A stretch of 32,000 bases of DNA, from the NCBI RefSeq assembly GCF_001462395.1, contig NZ_LNTB01000002.1, positions 1 to 32,000 of the forward strand. The letters are read 5' to 3'. The notes below the pieces were generated by a model. It saw only the letters and a program-made list of their open reading frames with translations, was not told the origin of the DNA and did no database searches. The stretch comes from Pyrodictium occultum (GTDB lineage: Archaea; Thermoproteota; Thermoprotei_A; Sulfolobales; Pyrodictiaceae). Positions 17,856-30,166 of this stretch are shown one piece after another; position 1 is the stretch's first letter, and each line of letters opens with the position of its first letter. Both the position numbers and the translations under genes were made by a program.

Positions 17856-17897
17856 GGGGCCGCCGGGCGCGGCTACTATAGTGAACCCGGCGGCCCC
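17856..17897. repeat. Perfect 12-bp GC inverted repeat (GGGGCCGCCGGG / CCCGGCGGCCCC) with an 18-nt loop
   Basis: Read directly. It is preceded by a 5-bp stem, GAGGG (17832-17836) / CCCTC (17851-17855). It lies in non-coding tail-to-tail spacer. Confidence 0.7.
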
Positions 17898-23239: not shown

Positions 23240-23494
23240 CTAGGCTCTCCTCGCAGCGGCCTCGACCGCCGCCTTCCTGGCCCTCTGCAGCCCCACCACG
23301 TAGAGGTAGATCAGCAGGAAGTCGGCGGCCAGCGATACCAGCACCATGCTGCCGGCGCCAACCTTCTGTATCCACGGGTAATGCGGCAGCACCGCCGCAG
23401 TCCACCATATAAGGGCGGCCGTCACAGTTATCCACAGGAACCAGGCAGGCGCTTGTATCAGCAAGTTGGTCCTGGCATCCCGCTTCCTCAGCAC
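23240..23494 (-). CDS. Small two-TM membrane protein, 84 aa
   Basis: Two clear hydrophobic helices (APAWFLWITVTAALIWWTAAVL and AGSMVLVSLAADFLLIYLYVVGL) with positively charged ends. An A5 run at 23194-23198 (T5 on the minus strand) follows it. Confidence 0.5.
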   Translation of the reverse strand: MLRKRDARTNLLIQAPAWFLWITVTAALIWWTAAVLPHYPWIQKVGAGSMVLVSLAADFLLIYLYVVGLQRARKAAVEAAARRA

Positions 23495-23606
23495 GGCGTA
23501 TACCCACAGCGCGCTGGTGAGCAGCGCCAGGGCCGCGCAGCAGAGCCTCGGACATATTACCGCCGGCGCCCGCGGCCCTAGGGACTTCCCGGCGGCGCCT
23601 GCAAGG

Positions 23607-24897: not shown

Positions 24898-26904
24898 CTA
24901 GTGCTCTATCCTCTTCTTCATCCCCCACGGCCACCACGCGGCCCTGCCCAGCAGCGATATAGCCAGCGGCGTCAGCAGGTAGGACGCCATCAGCCCCGCC
25001 AGGAGCACCGTCGAGGCCAGCGTAAAGCCCATCTCCCTCATACCAGTGTTGCTTGCGGTCATCATCGAGGCGTAGGCGACTGTTACCACCAGCGAGAGGC
25101 CTATTATGAAGAGGCTCACCGCGCCCGCCGCCCTAGCCACCGACTTCTTGGGGTCGCAGCCGGTTAGGTGGCACTCCTCGAGCGCCCTCGCCAGGAAGAA
25201 GCTGTTATAGTCCATGCCTACGCCGAGCACAGCCATCATAGCCACTATGTTGAGGAACCATAGCACGGGCTTCCCGAGCAGGTCCTGGAAAAGCAGTATG
25301 CTCGCCGCTATCCCCATAACCGCGGCGCCTATTATCACCGTGAGCGCTACTACTGCAGCCACGAGGCTGCCGAACACCACTGTGAAGACTAGTATCATTA
25401 GCAGCGCCGCCGCGGGGAGGATGCGGTGGTAGTACAGCTTGTGGAGAAGCTCATCCATCTCCAGTACGCCGTAGGGCGCGCCGCCCACGTAGACGGTGAA
25501 GCCGTGGCTGCTGGCGTAGCTGTGGGCCACCCGGTGTATCTCCTCCACCGCTTCCTGGCCCTCCCGGCTGTAGGGGTCCACGCCGAGTATGACCTGGATA
25601 ACCGCCACCCTGCCGCCGCTGCTTGTGAGCCTCCTGCCGCCGCTGCGCGCTGCCTCCCCGATGCTGACCTTCACTCCGTGGGGCCTGGTGGGGGCTAGGA
25701 CCTTGTAGACGCCGGGCACCTCCGCTATCTTGTCCACCAGTCCATCCAGCATAGCAGCGGTAGAGTTGTCCTCCCACACGCTGTGGGGGAGCACCGCGGC
25801 CACGTAGACCGGGTCCGTTATGCCTGGGGCGAACTCCTCGCTTAGCACGTTGAACGCCTGGAGGGCTGGCGCGCTCTCCGGCAGCATCAGCTTCATGTCA
25901 TGGGTGCCCTTGAAGCTTACGTAGTAGTGGCCGGAAACGATTATCAGCAGGGCGAGGACCGCGAACAGGGGCGCCTCGTAGCGGGTCAGCAGCCTCATCA
26001 CCCTGCTCTCGCGTCCCACGCGCCTCTCCCTGCTCGGCCTCCTCGGCCACCAGAACCAGCGGCGGCCGCCGAGCAGTGCTAGGAGGGCAGGCACCAGGGT
26101 CAGGCTGGCGGCGGCGACGGTTACCGGTATATTCTCGCCCATTCTGCGTAGGAAGCCTACCTCCCAGCCTAGCAGCAGGCTGCCAAAGCCTATGATCACG
26201 GTGAGCGCGCTGGCAACTATGGCGGGGCCGGCACGCCTGAGAGCCCTCCTAGCCGCCTCCCGGGCGTCCTCGAGCTTAGCGTACTCCTCGCGGAACCGGT
26301 GCACCAGGTAGGCGGCGTAGTCCGCGCCCAGGCCCAGCGCCGTGGTTATCATCAGCGCGTGGGTCTGGGAGTCGAGGCTCACTATCCCGTGGCTGGCCGC
26401 CAGGTAGATGATGGCGCCGCCGACCAGGAGGCCCAGGAAGATGCCTACATAGGGCAGTATGACGGCGAACACGCTCTCCAGGATGACCAGCAGCACTATG
26501 AAGGTGCCGATCCCGCTGAACCTGCTAGTCTTCTCGACATCCTCCCTCGCATACTTCTTCACCTGGCTCAGGAGCAGGTCGCTTCCACTAACATATACCT
26601 TGCCATGGGCTATATGCATGCTGTCCAGCAGCTCCTCGACTAGCCTCCCGGCAGCCTCGGTGTTGCCCGCCCTCTCGTCCTGCGTAGAGCCCAGCGGCTC
26701 GCCCATCACGGTGAAGGCGTGGTGGTCCCCGGATACTAGGAGGCCCTCACTACTCCTCAGCAGCTTCGGGTACACGCTGCCGAGCAGCAGCCTCTCCGCC
26801 AGCAGGCGTGCCGCCCCCACCACGCTCGTCTCGTTCCTAGCCGCCTCAACCGCTAGCCTGGCCAGCTCGCCCGGCAGCCAGCTCGGAGGCTTCAGCCCAT
26901 CCAC
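24898..26904 (-). CDS. MMPL/RND-superfamily transporter, portion containing TM2-TM12 (668 aa from GTG; the frame is open further upstream)
   Basis: Two MMPL signature repeats, GLGADYAAYLVHRFREE and GVGMDYNSFFLARALEE. Eleven hydrophobic helices are arranged 5 + 1 + loop + 5. It lacks the family's first TM helix. Confidence 0.85.
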   Translation of the reverse strand: MDGLKPPSWLPGELARLAVEAARNETSVVGAARLLAERLLLGSVYPKLLRSSEGLLVSGDHHAFTVMGEPLGSTQDERAGNTEAAGRLVEELLDSMHIAHGKVYVSGSDLLLSQVKKYAREDVEKTSRFSGIGTFIVLLVILESVFAVILPYVGIFLGLLVGGAIIYLAASHGIVSLDSQTHALMITTALGLGADYAAYLVHRFREEYAKLEDAREAARRALRRAGPAIVASALTVIIGFGSLLLGWEVGFLRRMGENIPVTVAAASLTLVPALLALLGGRRWFWWPRRPSRERRVGRESRVMRLLTRYEAPLFAVLALLIIVSGHYYVSFKGTHDMKLMLPESAPALQAFNVLSEEFAPGITDPVYVAAVLPHSVWEDNSTAAMLDGLVDKIAEVPGVYKVLAPTRPHGVKVSIGEAARSGGRRLTSSGGRVAVIQVILGVDPYSREGQEAVEEIHRVAHSYASSHGFTVYVGGAPYGVLEMDELLHKLYYHRILPAAALLMILVFTVVFGSLVAAVVALTVIIGAAVMGIAASILLFQDLLGKPVLWFLNIVAMMAVLGVGMDYNSFFLARALEECHLTGCDPKKSVARAAGAVSLFIIGLSLVVTVAYASMMTASNTGMREMGFTLASTVLLAGLMASYLLTPLAISLLGRAAWWPWGMKKRIEH

Positions 26905-26981
26905 GCTGATCCTGCCTATGTTCTCCCTTACCCCTTTCTCCAGCAGCTCCTCGACCAGGCTCCACTTCCTCTCCGCGGGGA

Positions 26982-27305
26982 TCAGGGGCCCTCCCTGATC
27001 ACTGTGTCGAGCATCCCCTCCACGGTGCCCGTCATGTTCTCCGGGGTGCGGGCTAGCACCTGGCGGCGCAGCTCCCCGGCCACTATCCTCTTCAACGCCT
27101 CCCTGCTGTGGAGCATCTCCACCAGCTGCTCCGGGGTGAAGGGCAGCCGCTTGCCCTGCTTCTCGACCATCCAGGCCACGGCCTCGGCTGCAAGGGTCTC
27201 GTTGGACGCCAGCAGCCCCTGGGCCCCGGGGTCGTAGCGCCTGAGCGCCTCCACAACCAGCTGGGCCTTCTCGGCGCCCATTCGCCCCGCTGCCTGGCGC
27301 TCCAC
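26982..27305 (-). CDS. ORF fragment of 107 aa, interpreted as part of the MMPL extracellular loop
   Basis: No TM or signal sequence. Both Asn residues are in sequons (NET, NMT). It carries a copy of the DPGAQGLLAS motif. Adding one C to the CCCC run at ~26985-26988 fuses it to the 668-aa ORF (…TVIREGPLIPAERKWSLVEELLEKG…). Confidence 0.6.
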   Translation of the reverse strand: MERQAAGRMGAEKAQLVVEALRRYDPGAQGLLASNETLAAEAVAWMVEKQGKRLPFTPEQLVEMLHSREALKRIVAGELRRQVLARTPENMTGTVEGMLDTVIREGP

Positions 27306-27325
27306 AAGCTCCAGGGCCAGCTCTC

Positions 27326-28114
27326 TCAGCCGGCTAGGCCCCGCCTCGCCCCCGCAACCAGCCTGGCCAGCTCCTTGGGGCTCTTGGCCAGCAGCCCCCG
27401 GGCCTCGGGGTCAGCCTGGAGAACCAGGGGCACTAGGCCGCGGGCCTCAGCGGGGAGCCGCTGCTGGAGCAGCTCCGCCGCCAGCCTGGCTGCCTCCCTG
27501 CGGCCTCCATGCCCCCGGAGCAGCTTCTCCGCGGCCTCCACGGCCCCGGCTGGGGCGCCCAGCTGCTCCAGAAGCCTGGCCGCGGCCTCCATGCTCCTCT
27601 CCGGGCTAGCTGCCAGGGTGCCGTTGGCACCGGGGTCCTCCTCCACGAGGAGCCTTGCCAGTGTGCTGGTGGCGTTGCCGGGGAGCCTCATCCTGGCAGC
27701 GGCCCCGGCCGCCACCGCCTCAGCAGCGTCGAGGGGACGGAGCCTGCCCTCGACCGCTAGCCTTGCCAGCTTCTCGGCGGCGTCTCTCGGCAGGCCTTCC
27801 TCCTCCAGGCTCCCGGCTAGTATGCCCGTGGCGATCTCGTCGGCGTGGCTCGCCACGCTCTCGGCGGCCCGGCTGGCTGCCTCCTGGGCGAGCTGGAGCA
27901 GCCTGAGCTGGCTCTTCACGTGCATGGGCGGGGGCTGGAGGAGGAGCAGGGCCTCGCTAATGTTCATCCCCCTCTTCTCTCTGCTGAGCTCCTCGGCCCA
28001 GTGGCCCGCGAGGACGGGGAGCAGGCTGCGGAGCGTGCCCGGTGTCTGGTTGGCGAGGGCCTCCACTGCCGCCTTCAGCGCGGCCGTGTCGGGGTCGGCT
28101 CCCCCTCTAACCAT
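27326..28114 (-). CDS. ORF fragment of 262 aa, interpreted as part of the MMPL extracellular loop
   Basis: No TM or signal sequence; Ala/Leu/Glu-rich and helical. All 4 Asn are in sequons (NQT, NIS, NAT, NGT). It has two copies of the DP-x-A-x-G-x-LA-x-SP motif. Adding one G to the GGGGG run at ~27346-27350 fuses it to the 107-aa ORF frame. Confidence 0.6.
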   Translation of the reverse strand: MVRGGADPDTAALKAAVEALANQTPGTLRSLLPVLAGHWAEELSREKRGMNISEALLLLQPPPMHVKSQLRLLQLAQEAASRAAESVASHADEIATGILAGSLEEEGLPRDAAEKLARLAVEGRLRPLDAAEAVAAGAAARMRLPGNATSTLARLLVEEDPGANGTLAASPERSMEAAARLLEQLGAPAGAVEAAEKLLRGHGGRREAARLAAELLQQRLPAEARGLVPLVLQADPEARGLLAKSPKELARLVAGARRGLAG

Positions 28115-29120
28115 ATCTGGCTATCCCGCGCCAGGCCTGGATGGCCTCCTTCCTGGGGAGCGGGGCCAACCTCGGGCTCACCTGGGTGAGGTTGGCTACC
28201 CTGGCGTAGGCCTGGTAGCTGCCGTTGTAGAGCTCCAGGTAGTAGTAGGCCCTGCCCAGCTGCCACCACGTGTAGGCTATTAGCTGCATAGTCTGGTTAA
28301 CGGCCGTCCTATTGGAGAGGAGTAGTCTGAGCCTCGAGGCGCTCCGGGACAGGTTATGGTAGAGACTGCTGTACGCCTGGTCCAGCCCGGCCAGCCCCGT
28401 AGCGGTCCCGTTGAGCCTGGCCGCTACCTCTAGCAGGGAGTCTGTGGCGTTCTCAAGGGCGAGGTCTACCCGGGCGAGCCCCTCCATGGTCCGGTTTAGG
28501 GCTGCTGCGAGGCTCAACAGGCTCCTGTAGGCCTCTACATAACCTTTATCGGCCTCCATTAGCCCCCTTACGCTCTGGTTAAGCATTCTCACCTGCCTGC
28601 TAGCGTTCTCCAGCGCCGAGGCGTACGCCTGGTCCAGCTGCTCCAGCATCGCGTAGAGCCTCGCCGCGTTGCCGGCCGACATGTTGACCGCCTGGAGCAT
28701 CGCTTTGTACAGGGACTCGTTCACAGCGGCAAGCATTAGGGGGAGGCTACTGACACCCCTCATGTAGCTGCTTACGCTCTCGTTGAACCTTCTGCCCCAC
28801 TCCACAAGCTTCAGCACAGTCCCGTTATCGTCGAGGTTGACCCCGGTGACAACTATGACCCCGATGCCTCCATGACCGCTCAGAACCCTGCTCATGAGCT
28901 GCTCAGCCTGCCTGGTCTCGCTGCTCGGCGGGAGGCTGTACTGCTGCTCCTTAACCACGCTGCTCAGCCTGGCGAACAGAGGCGCCGCCGCCACGGCCAC
29001 GATTATCCAGATGGCTACAACCGCGAGGGGCCTCCTCGTTATCGCCTCAGCCAGACCCACACTACACACCCACGAGGTATCGGGGCCCGACACATCTCCG
29101 GGGGATAAATCGCTTTCCAT
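28107..29120 (-). CDS. MMPL N-terminal module: TM1 plus the start of a heavily sequon-decorated ectodomain, 337 aa
   Basis: LAEAITRRPLAVVAIWIIVAVAAAPLFARLSSVV is the typical MMPL N-terminus and TM1. The downstream helical region has 14 of 16 Asn in N-x-S/T. Its stop overlaps the next ATG (TATGGTTAG). Confidence 0.75.
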   Translation of the reverse strand: MESDLSPGDVSGPDTSWVCSVGLAEAITRRPLAVVAIWIIVAVAAAPLFARLSSVVKEQQYSLPPSSETRQAEQLMSRVLSGHGGIGVIVVTGVNLDDNGTVLKLVEWGRRFNESVSSYMRGVSSLPLMLAAVNESLYKAMLQAVNMSAGNAARLYAMLEQLDQAYASALENASRQVRMLNQSVRGLMEADKGYVEAYRSLLSLAAALNRTMEGLARVDLALENATDSLLEVAARLNGTATGLAGLDQAYSSLYHNLSRSASRLRLLLSNRTAVNQTMQLIAYTWWQLGRAYYYLELYNGSYQAYARVANLTQVSPRLAPLPRKEAIQAWRGIARYG

Positions 29121-29201
29121 AGACGCTCATAGCCGGGGCCCCGCCCTATCTAGATTAGAGCAGGGGAGCCCCTGCAAGAGTGGAGGGGTGCAGCAAGTAG
29201 G

Positions 29202-29669
29202 ATGGCCAGCCAGGCTCTGGAGATGAGGGCGCGCTACATGGTGTTGCTCCTCCTCGCCGAGGGGCCGAAGACGGGGTACGAGCTGATAAAGAGGATAAGG
29301 AGCGCCCTGGGGGAGGTTGGTGCAGCCGCCAGCCCCGGCACCGTGTACCCGGTGCTCCGCAGCCTGGAGGAGGAGGGCTTCATAGAGGCGAGCGAGGAGC
29401 CCCATGGGGCCAGGCAGAGGAAGGTCTACAGGATAACGAGGAGAGGCCTCGAGCAGCTCCTACGCATGGTCAACCGGGGCCTCCACGTGATAGAGGCGGC
29501 GATAAGGCTCCACATAGACGCCGCCCGGGGCCTAGCCCGGGTCGAGCCGGGCGGGGAGCTGCGGCCGCTCCTAGAGGAGACCGTCGAGAGGCTTGAGAGG
29601 ATAGAGGAGCTCACCGAGAGCCTCATAGAGGCCCTCCGCGGCATCCTGGCCGCTGTGCCTACAGCCTAG
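29202..29669 (+). CDS. PadR-family transcriptional regulator, 155 aa
   Basis: MVLLLLAEGPKTGYELIKRI...GTVYPVLRSLEEEGFIEA...RKVYRITRRGLEQL is the PadR winged-HTH pattern. It is divergent from the MMPL locus. The 8-bp palindrome ATCTAGAT (29149-29156) lies in the shared spacer. Confidence 0.85.
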   Translation: MASQALEMRARYMVLLLLAEGPKTGYELIKRIRSALGEVGAAASPGTVYPVLRSLEEEGFIEASEEPHGARQRKVYRITRRGLEQLLRMVNRGLHVIEAAIRLHIDAARGLARVEPGGELRPLLEETVERLERIEELTESLIEALRGILAAVPTA

Positions 29670-29716
29670 GCCCCGGGGCGCCCCCAGGGAAGGGCGTGCA
29701 TGGAGGCGCAGCCTCA

Positions 29717-30166
29717 TTGCACGAGATGAGTATAGCCCTGGGCATACTCGCGGCGGTCGAGGACGCGTTCCGCAGCACACCCGGGGCGAAGCGGGTGACC
29801 AGGATAAGGCTCCGGGTCGGCGTGCTCAGCCTCATAGACGTCGAGGCCCTCCGCTTCGCGCTCCGCGTAGCCTCCCGCGGCACCCCCGCCGAGGACGCGG
29901 AGATAGAGGTGGAGATGGCTGAGCCCCGGTTCCGCTGCAGGGTCTGCGGCTACGAGTGGAAGCCGAGCAGGGAGGAGACGGAGAGGCTCACGGGCAACCC
30001 AGAGATAAGCACCCTGGTCCACATAGACCCCGACGTCCTGCCCCGGTTCCTCCAGTGCCCCCGCTGCGGGGCCAGGGACGTGGAGGTGGTCCAGGGCACC
30101 GGTGTAATGCTCCACAGCGTCGACATAGAGACCGGGGAGGACGAGGAGCGCGGGGTACAGCTGTAA
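29717..30166 (+). CDS. hypA: Hydrogenase nickel-insertion/maturation factor HypA, ~149 aa
   Basis: TTG 29717 gives the canonical N-terminus M-H-E-M-S-I (the Ni-binding MHE motif). The CRVCG ... CPRCG zinc site has the long archaeal-type spacer. The track ORF starts at 29696. Confidence 0.85.
   Translation: MHEMSIALGILAAVEDAFRSTPGAKRVTRIRLRVGVLSLIDVEALRFALRVASRGTPAEDAEIEVEMAEPRFRCRVCGYEWKPSREETERLTGNPEISTLVHIDPDVLPRFLQCPRCGARDVEVVQGTGVMLHSVDIETGEDEERGVQL

Follow-up and report, generated by a model that had tools for sequence, protein, structure and literature searches.

A fragmented MMPL transporter gene of Pyrodictium occultum is probably a recent pseudogene from an archaeal family with a giant insert

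In pumps of the MmpL3 type, Asp-Tyr pairs in transmembrane (TM) segments 4 and 10 form the proton relay. MmpL3 itself has two compact periplasmic domains of ~150 amino acids (aa) and no coiled-coil insert, and the related MmpL4 and MmpL5 are the mycobacterial siderophore and bedaquiline exporters. To our knowledge, it was only in 2025 that MMPL/RND pumps with envelope-spanning helical extensions were recognized, in mycobacteria. The coiled coil of MmpL5 forms a trimeric tube of ~13 nm that is required for efflux (PMC12501195). Among archaeal proteins, the Haloferax volcanii permease HVO_A0467 has been proposed as an exporter, and extensive coiled-coil regions have been noted in the BLASTp matches of haloarchaeal permeases and HVO_A0466-type proteins (PMC11349517). 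Here we analyse a locus of Pyrodictium occultum PL19 that lies within a 32,000-nucleotide (nt) stretch (the window; positions 1 to 32,000 of contig NZ_LNTB01000002.1). The minus strand of the window carries, at 24898-29120, four colinear open reading frames (ORFs; Table 1), whose pieces are tied by exact-sequence matches to GenBank entries CF15_07990 to CF15_08005. These ORFs are fragments of one MMPL/RND gene of originally ~1,417 codons.

The initial annotation had proposed that the four ORFs together reconstruct one MMPL transporter of about 1,400 aa. All four are present as it described them, and joining them as it suggested gives a fused reading whose 1,408-aa product matches the Pfam MMPL profile at 237 bits. 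Ten single-ORF proteins of 1,405-1,447 aa align to this fusion (99% coverage, 46-63% identity), the best of them an 'MMPL family transporter' of Pyrodictium abyssi. The multiple alignment of the fusion and its homologues is colinear across all three junctions, and in a tblastn search the P. abyssi protein passes through window frames -1, -2, -1 and -3 in turn. Among orthologous loci that are not ended by a contig edge, the gene is one ORF of 1,420-1,520 codons, with a single exception in a metagenome-assembled genome (MAG). In that Desulfurococcales MAG (L008, 5935-9896) the reading frame closes after 1,184 codons although the tblastn match runs further; this could be a broken copy or a MAG error. 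A scan of genome contigs gave relatives at no more than 51% identity, among which neither the genome of the window itself nor that of P. abyssi appeared. A 200-aa P. delaneyi-like protein from a JGI contig (P0031) has family sequence for ~160 aa followed by an out-of-frame-looking tail, and may be another frameshifted copy, on an environmental contig.

Among the four ORFs, only the 668-aa ORF matches Pfam MMPL (PF03176; E-value 2.7e-71, 240.7 bits against a cut-off of 20.5, in two stretches). The aligned region enters the profile only at position 77 of 333, so this ORF lacks TM1 and the start of the domain. Searches of Fragments 1-3 against Pfam and NCBIfam gave weak coiled-coil noise only, and the two middle ORFs match no family.

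An intact allele of the gene identifies the lesions. P0058 is an uninterrupted 1,417-aa protein encoded on contig 57 of the Logan assembly DRR667394; it has two MMPL matches and falls in the same 90%-identity protein cluster as the window pieces. The 26-kb DRR667394 contig (L024) keeps the gene order of the window, with HypA, PadR, MMPL, M20 peptidase and onward. Nucleotide alignment of the window with the intact allele shows 18 single-nucleotide differences in 4,254 nt (99.5% DNA identity), together with five lesions. The uninterrupted coding sequence for a predicted 12-TM protein that is found in relatives is thus broken in the window by three frameshifts and two in-frame deletions.

At junction 1, GCC AGT ATG GTT AGA (A-S-M-V-R) in the intact allele corresponds to GCC AGA TAT GGT TAG in the window, the inserted A producing a TAG stop and an overlapping ATG. 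The 81-nt deletion is bounded by the 19-nt sequence GAGGAGCTGGCCAGGCTGG, which is present in two perfect copies 81 nt apart in the intact allele and in one copy in the window, where the survivor has A in place of the first G; the deletion takes away the start of helical repeat 3 of the insert described below. At junction 2, GCG AGG GGC GAG (A-R-G-E) has become GCG GGG GCG, the loss of A generating both the GGGGG run and a -1 frameshift. At junction 3, GGC CCC GTG ATC CCC (G-P-V-I-P) has become GGC CCC TGA, the loss of G resulting in a stop codon and a second -1 frameshift. The 9-nt deletion strips T-A-A from the nearly invariant TM6 segment VAATAxASLTLVPALL.

Compared with the intact allele, not one of the three frameshifts alters the length of an existing homopolymer. 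The initial annotation had ascribed two of the junctions to homopolymer length errors, but the intact allele shows the loss of A from AGG and of G from CCC GTG, with no change in the C run. The repaired peptides it offered are consequently each wrong by one residue (AGG for ARG, PLIP for PVIP), and the G run that it placed at 27346-27350 lies at 27349-27353. For junction 1 it had left a gene boundary, a real disruption and recoding side by side. The inserted A points to a real disruption, and the intact allele and the orthologues, which are in frame at this site, speak against the other two.

Table 1 Coordinates of the ORFs, gene fragments, lesions and adjacent regulator in the window
Feature	Position	Strand	Description
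ORF 1	28107-29120	-	337 aa
ORF 2	27326-28114	-	262 aa
ORF 3	26982-27305	-	107 aa
ORF 4	24898-26904	-	668 aa
Fragment 1	28107..29060	-	CF15_08005; 317 aa from GTG 29060; GenBank label hypothetical
Fragment 2	27326..28114	-	CF15_08000; 262 aa; GenBank label hypothetical
Fragment 3	26982..27305	-	107 aa from GTG 27305; GenBank CF15_07995 is 99 aa from ATG 27281, hypothetical
Fragment 4	24898..26981	-	CF15_07990, KSW10715.1; 668 aa from GTG 26904; GenBank label 'MMPL family transporter'
Lesion a (junction 1)	28114..28118	-	1-nt insertion, A at ~28116
Lesion b	27357..27375	-	81-nt in-frame deletion (27 codons) between 19-nt direct repeats
Lesion c (junction 2)	27349..27353	-	Loss of A of AGG codon (27352), directly after lesion b
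Lesion d (junction 3)	26982..26988	-	Loss of one G (26984)
Lesion e	26107..26118	-	9-nt in-frame deletion, GCC-repeat context
PadR-family regulator CF15_08010	29202..29669	+	155 aa, divergent from MMPL gene

The lesions divide the protein as follows. Fragment 1 runs from the cytoplasmic N-terminus through TM1 and the beta-alpha-beta unit that makes up the first half of periplasmic domain 1 into a long heptad helix, of which it includes the greater part, with 14 N-x-S/T sequons. Its true start is likely to be the GTG at 29060 (MGLAEAITRRP), in agreement with the N-termini of homologues and with the GenBank coding sequence; the ATG at 29120, which the initial annotation took as the start, opens an upstream extension and is unlikely to be used. 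Fragment 2 takes in the last part of the coiled-coil region together with helical repeats 1 and 2 of the insert, and Fragment 3 covers repeat 3 and part of repeat 4. As originally noted for these middle ORFs, Fragment 2 contains no TM segment or signal sequence, and neither it nor Fragment 3 has an export signal. The homologous reading of Fragment 4 begins at ~26981, ahead of its GTG. The N-terminal part of this fragment completes the insert, adds the remaining half of periplasmic domain 1 and continues through TM2-6 into a cytoplasmic W-F-W-W-P-R loop; the C-terminal part comprises TM7, a periplasmic domain 2 of normal size and TM8-12, with both D-Y motifs kept. None of the four fragments can make a working pump: Fragment 1 stops within the ectodomain after a single TM segment, Fragments 2 and 3 carry no export signal, and Fragment 4 is without TM1 and one half of periplasmic domain 1.

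We judged whether the lesions are real from read assemblies (Logan contigs) rather than from raw reads. The PL19 genome (1.6 Mb) was sequenced on the Illumina MiSeq platform with 22.5 M reads of 276 nt, and is a draft in two contigs produced by SPAdes and manual superassembly (PMC4767911). From the published figures we calculate a coverage of roughly 3,900x. A gene that is intact in PL19 and only appears broken through draft errors would be compatible with the draft status of the assembly, with the short G or C runs that adjoin two of the junctions, and with a corrected reading that is fully open and well conserved. Indels are, however, rare in Illumina data at this depth, run-length changes account for none of the frameshifts, and the 19-nt repeat should be too short to collapse in SPAdes with reads of this length. 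Furthermore, the lesions recur in other assemblies. Logan contig L020 (SRR5453782) is 100% identical to window 27350-29957, reproducing junction 1 and reaching the first four G of junction 2; it ends in ...GCGGGG, consistent with the window allele there. Logan contig L023 (ERR15087784) comes from another sample and represents another haplotype, 99.4% identical to window 26659-27618; it too carries the 81-nt deletion and lacks the G of junction 3. L023 retains the junction-2 A, with LVARGEAGPSRL in frame at that site, and has a private lesion, an extra G in the run at 27395-27399 that causes a different frameshift 40 nt upstream of junction 2.

The presence of nested and private lesions in three haplotypes indicates stepwise decay after a first inactivating hit, not sequencing error, and the order of the lesions can be read from these haplotypes. 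Neither a scan for the junction-2 pattern (4-7 bases allowed) nor a protein-guided scan found same-species metagenome contigs. Phase variation at short G/C runs was also considered and rejected, as a run-length change occurs in only one of six indel events across haplotypes. Poor sequencing of the window as a whole can likewise be dismissed: about 17 other window genes have full-length Pfam coverage, and within the 13 kb alignable to L024 no other window gene carries a coding indel, the remaining indels being all intergenic, or in or at the edge of the remnant of a neighbouring gene, cstA. Taken together, these observations make an artefact of sequencing or assembly highly improbable. The initial annotation had named, as the outcome that would speak against a single gene, a sequence confirmed by reads combined with relatives carrying the same four ORFs; read assemblies do confirm the sequence, but the relatives do not have the four ORFs.

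The fragments might alternatively be functional, either as four polypeptides that assemble into a transporter or through programmed recoding by +1, -1 and -1 shifts. The stop/start overlap at junction 1 (ATGGTTAG) would suit such a scheme, a P-site slip into the -1 frame on GGG (junction 2) or CCC (junction 3) would restore perfect pairing, and coding-like GC content at third codon positions is kept in all frames. Programmed -1 frameshifting is known in archaea from one fucosidase gene. However, the three sites are in frame in every orthologue and in the 99.5%-identical allele, and neither the shift sites nor the frame arrangement is conserved, L023 shifting elsewhere. The yield from an mRNA that required three shifts of differing sign would be negligible, Fragments 2 and 3 have no export signal although their place is extracellular, and the 81-nt and 9-nt deletions have also removed conserved residues. 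We therefore regard a functional split or recoded gene as extremely unlikely.

A third explanation accepts the lesions and places their origin in the laboratory. PL19 has been kept in artificial medium since 1982 (PMC4767911), some 40 years of type-strain cultivation during which the gene could have been lost independently of natural populations, and the deletion of the neighbouring cstA in the window fits the shedding of functions unneeded in culture. Against this, L023 is a distinct haplotype that already has two of the lesions, and it derives from a very fragmented assembly (contig number ~2.85 million) that looks like a metagenome. In addition, the same gene has decayed independently in metagenome assemblies of another lineage. 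Loss in culture is thus very unlikely to be the cause. The assemblies in question are two from the European Nucleotide Archive that represent another Pyrodictium lineage (L025 6744-8025 and L026 6744-7857), in which the MMPL gene is in fragments of 86, 127, 110 and 47 aa. Synteny is kept at these loci (HypA-PadR-[MMPL]-M20-CstA-DUF7990-ArsA), and the independent decay in this lineage indicates that loss of the MMPL gene is recurrent.

Several observations sit less easily with a pseudogene. The corrected reading is free of in-frame stops; private changes at invariant columns number 11 in the window, compared with 1-13 in intact homologues, making this test of relaxed constraint uninformative; and relaxation at the amino acid level is only weakly visible, with ~10 nonsynonymous against ~7-8 synonymous differences from the intact allele. 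It also cannot be proved that SRR5453782 and the PL19 data set are independent of one another, and L020 stops inside the junction-2 G run, after its fourth G (window 27350), possibly because of read heterogeneity or a drop in coverage; this end point could equally be cited in favour of an artefact. The lack of stops and a number of private changes within the intact range indicate that the inactivation is recent. Given disabling lesions that are evident against intact relatives and reproduced in other assemblies, with neighbouring genes unaffected, we conclude that the locus is very probably a true pseudogene of a giant-insert MMPL exporter, inactivated recently, hit several times and still decaying in PL19. 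CF15_07990 to CF15_08005 are pieces of one dead gene, for which the proper annotation is pseudogene.

The intact homologues, among them WP_338249512.1 of P. abyssi and WP_055410052.1 of P. delaneyi, reveal the architecture that has been lost. In the Pyrodictiaceae proteins the TM1-TM2 loop is 820-870 aa long, and in a second Desulfurococcales clade, which aligns over the full length at ~26% identity, it reaches ~920 aa. N-x-S/T sequons number 12-26 in the Pyrodictiaceae loops compared with 0-3 in the remainder of the protein, and 23-45 in the distant clade. At the level of sequence, these counts argue strongly for a loop that lies outside the cell and is glycosylated. A simple hydropathy scan places TM1 at 32-50 and further clusters at 872-1063 and 1241-1384. 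At a strict threshold only 9 peaks are counted, in a layout compatible with a 1+5+1+5 arrangement of TM segments with large loops after TM1 and TM7.

We modelled residues 1-912 of the P. abyssi protein as a monomer with AlphaFold2 (mean predicted local distance difference test score 79, and 85-94 across the insert). The model contains beta-alpha-beta units at residues 48-102 and 811-862, the latter just before TM2. These units flank ~700 aa, indicating that the insert splits periplasmic domain 1 in two. The initial annotation had described an extracellular insert of about 800 aa: the loop after TM1 is indeed ~820 aa long in this gene, but the insert accounts for roughly 700 aa and the remainder is a normal periplasmic domain. 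Its characterization of the insert as helical and glycosylation-ready agrees with the modelled helices and with the 12-45 sequons of the family. The insert is predicted to open with a single unbroken helix (residues 116-250) in which the family-averaged hydrophobicity has a period of exactly 3.5 residues, giving 19 heptads in constant register. This helix would be ~20 nm long (at 0.15 nm per residue), and its sequon asparagine occupies an outward-facing heptad position. About 30 shorter helices follow. Searching with a profile built on one 87-aa unit reveals at least three helical repeats (~80 aa) in tandem, each with a terminal DPxAxGxLA.

A profile of the insert detects only 20 clusters at E ≤0.001 among 1.84 billion representative proteins. 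The long significant matches that we tested are all MMPL proteins (1,167-1,627 aa, with the MMPL core after residue 600), indicating that the insert has no stand-alone or cytoplasmic relatives; cytoplasmic homologues of the middle ORFs had been named at the outset as evidence that would contradict the single-gene proposal. In the membrane domain, D935/Y936 and D1305/Y1306 are invariant in 11 sequences, with the motifs GADYAAYLVHRFREE and GMDYNSFFLARALEE present. The W-F-W-W-P-R loop and both G-x-DY-x6-R-x-x-EE motifs, correctly recognized in the 668-aa ORF by the initial annotation, are also invariant in the family. The giant-insert architecture is therefore real and conserved in the Desulfurococcales. 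We found no paper on archaeal MMPL proteins with a giant insert, and a very large, putatively sugar-decorated helical outer domain of this kind appears to be undescribed.

The PadR gene that the initial annotation saw diverging from the locus is a conserved neighbour, adjoining the family MMPL gene in 13 loci. It is divergent and upstream in the Pyrodictiaceae; in the distant clade it is on the same strand, overlapping or immediately downstream. PadR-family regulators commonly control detoxification and efflux genes, which suggests that expression of the MMPL gene is inducible. In the 140-nt region between the PadR and MMPL genes (29061-29201), the window has a 1-nt deletion (T at 29099) relative to the strain with the intact allele, 40 nt upstream of the MMPL start, which could affect a promoter or operator.

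For the coupling, substrate class, oligomeric state and regulation of intact members we propose the following. Given the conserved Asp-Tyr pairs of TM4 and TM10, a feature shared with MmpL3/4/5, the protein would be a 12-TM proton-driven exporter. Since the chain contains no second helix as long as the 19-heptad one, this helix is likely to pair with its counterpart in other protomers, in which case oligomerization would build a glycosylated stalk reaching into the space under the surface layer (S-layer); such a periplasmic space under the S-layer exists in Pyrodictium (PMC2910488). By analogy with the coiled-coil tube of MmpL5, the stalk might hand an amphiphilic or lipophilic substrate outward, and the conserved adjacent PadR regulator may control expression in an inducible manner. 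We put forward only tentatively, and with doubt outweighing conviction, that the glycosylated ~700-aa insert builds a homo-oligomeric stalk or conduit across the pseudo-periplasm to the S-layer, under PadR control, as an independently evolved counterpart of the MmpL5 tube. Weighing against this proposal, the role of the stalk rests on a monomer model and on analogy, and a Foldseek comparison of the model with the Protein Data Bank (PDB) returned no meaningful match, only generic long coiled-coil proteins (SMC, dynein) with TM-scores ≤0.12. We also know of no archaeal member with an established substrate. If correct, the proposal would provide a first handle on the role of archaeal MMPL proteins, and repeated loss in Pyrodictium lineages would mark the gene as a conditionally dispensable surface-exposed machine.

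Other features of the window and genome also differ from relatives or from expectation. The window lacks ~1.9 kb that is present in the DRR667394 contig and contains most of a 601-aa CstA (PF02554) transporter gene. Only the last ~300 nt of cstA remain (window 23241-23543; deletion junction ~23530-23543), making this a second gene loss beside the MMPL pseudogene. Between a nucleotidyl-transferase gene and an amino-acid-kinase gene, a palindromic stretch of 42 nt (17856-17897) matches the related contig in inverted orientation, with four small indel differences between the two strains. The genome announcement listed 3,360 candidate genes in the 1.6-Mb genome, about twice the usual density (PMC4767911). 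This count suggests heavy over-calling or ORF splitting in a GC-rich genome, of which the four coding sequences analysed here are one example.

Membership of the MMPL (PF03176)/RND superfamily follows from profile matches in both halves of the protein and from the Asp-Tyr motifs. Matches to the NCBIfam models actII (TIGR00833; 219-233 bits, cut-off 874.7) and HAE3 (TIGR00921; 143-150 bits, cut-off 351.9) are partial and confined to the core, and the scores of P0001 fall short in every case (actII 233 against 874.7, HAE3 143 against 351.9, HpnN 54 against 751.85, MmpL3 97 against 1400). Scores so far below the curated cut-offs place the family in no curated NCBIfam MMPL subfamily.

Like the archaeal family described here, HVO_A0467 of H. 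volcanii is an archaeal MMPL-domain permease whose large extracytoplasmic domains face the pseudo-periplasm. It differs in pairing with a separate secreted, fibre-like Ig-fold glycoprotein, HVO_A0466, in place of a giant internal insert (PMC11349517), and in having no PadR partner. The insert-profile search detected no similarity between HVO_A0467 and the archaeal insert. MmpL3, the trehalose monomycolate exporter (PDB 6ajf, 6n40, 7k8b), has in common with the family the MMPL core and the Asp-Tyr proton-relay motifs, with similarity in the TM2-TM6 region (E ~1e-19), whereas the C-terminal cytoplasmic domain of MmpL3 is absent from the archaeal proteins.

The closest solved relatives are MmpL4 and MmpL5 (PDB 9gi0, 9rfu, 8zkp, 9dp6; E 1e-32 to 1e-28), with alignments that start at residue ~821, inside the second half of periplasmic domain 1, and extend to the C-terminus. 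MmpL4, MmpL5 and the archaeal family all have an MMPL core of 12 TM segments (predicted in the archaeal case) whose D-Y motifs lie in TM4 and TM10, and a long alpha-helical extracytoplasmic insertion in a periplasmic domain. The hosts differ, mycobacteria having a mycomembrane and the archaea being monoderm with an S-layer. The gene tables of the window and L024 contain no MmpS family member, the neighbours being PadR, HypA and M20 peptidase, plus CstA in L024. The insertions themselves also differ: that of MmpL5 is an antiparallel hairpin of 196 aa in periplasmic domain 2 (PMC12501195), whereas the archaeal insert comprises ~700 aa in domain 1 and consists of one unbroken 135-residue heptad helix plus helical repeats with many sequons. 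In the archaeal proteins the TM7-TM8 loop of ~175 aa aligns with MmpL4 without a large insertion, and so does not accommodate a coiled-coil hairpin in periplasmic domain 2. The window locus is thus in itself an ordinary, well documented pseudogene, but one that points to an unstudied archaeal transporter family. Hyperthermophilic archaea possess the same kind of pump as mycobacteria with a helical insert that is much larger, differently placed and heavily glycosylation-ready; if this insert forms a stalk to the S-layer, the two groups would have converged on similar ways of carrying hydrophobic cargo through a wide cell envelope.

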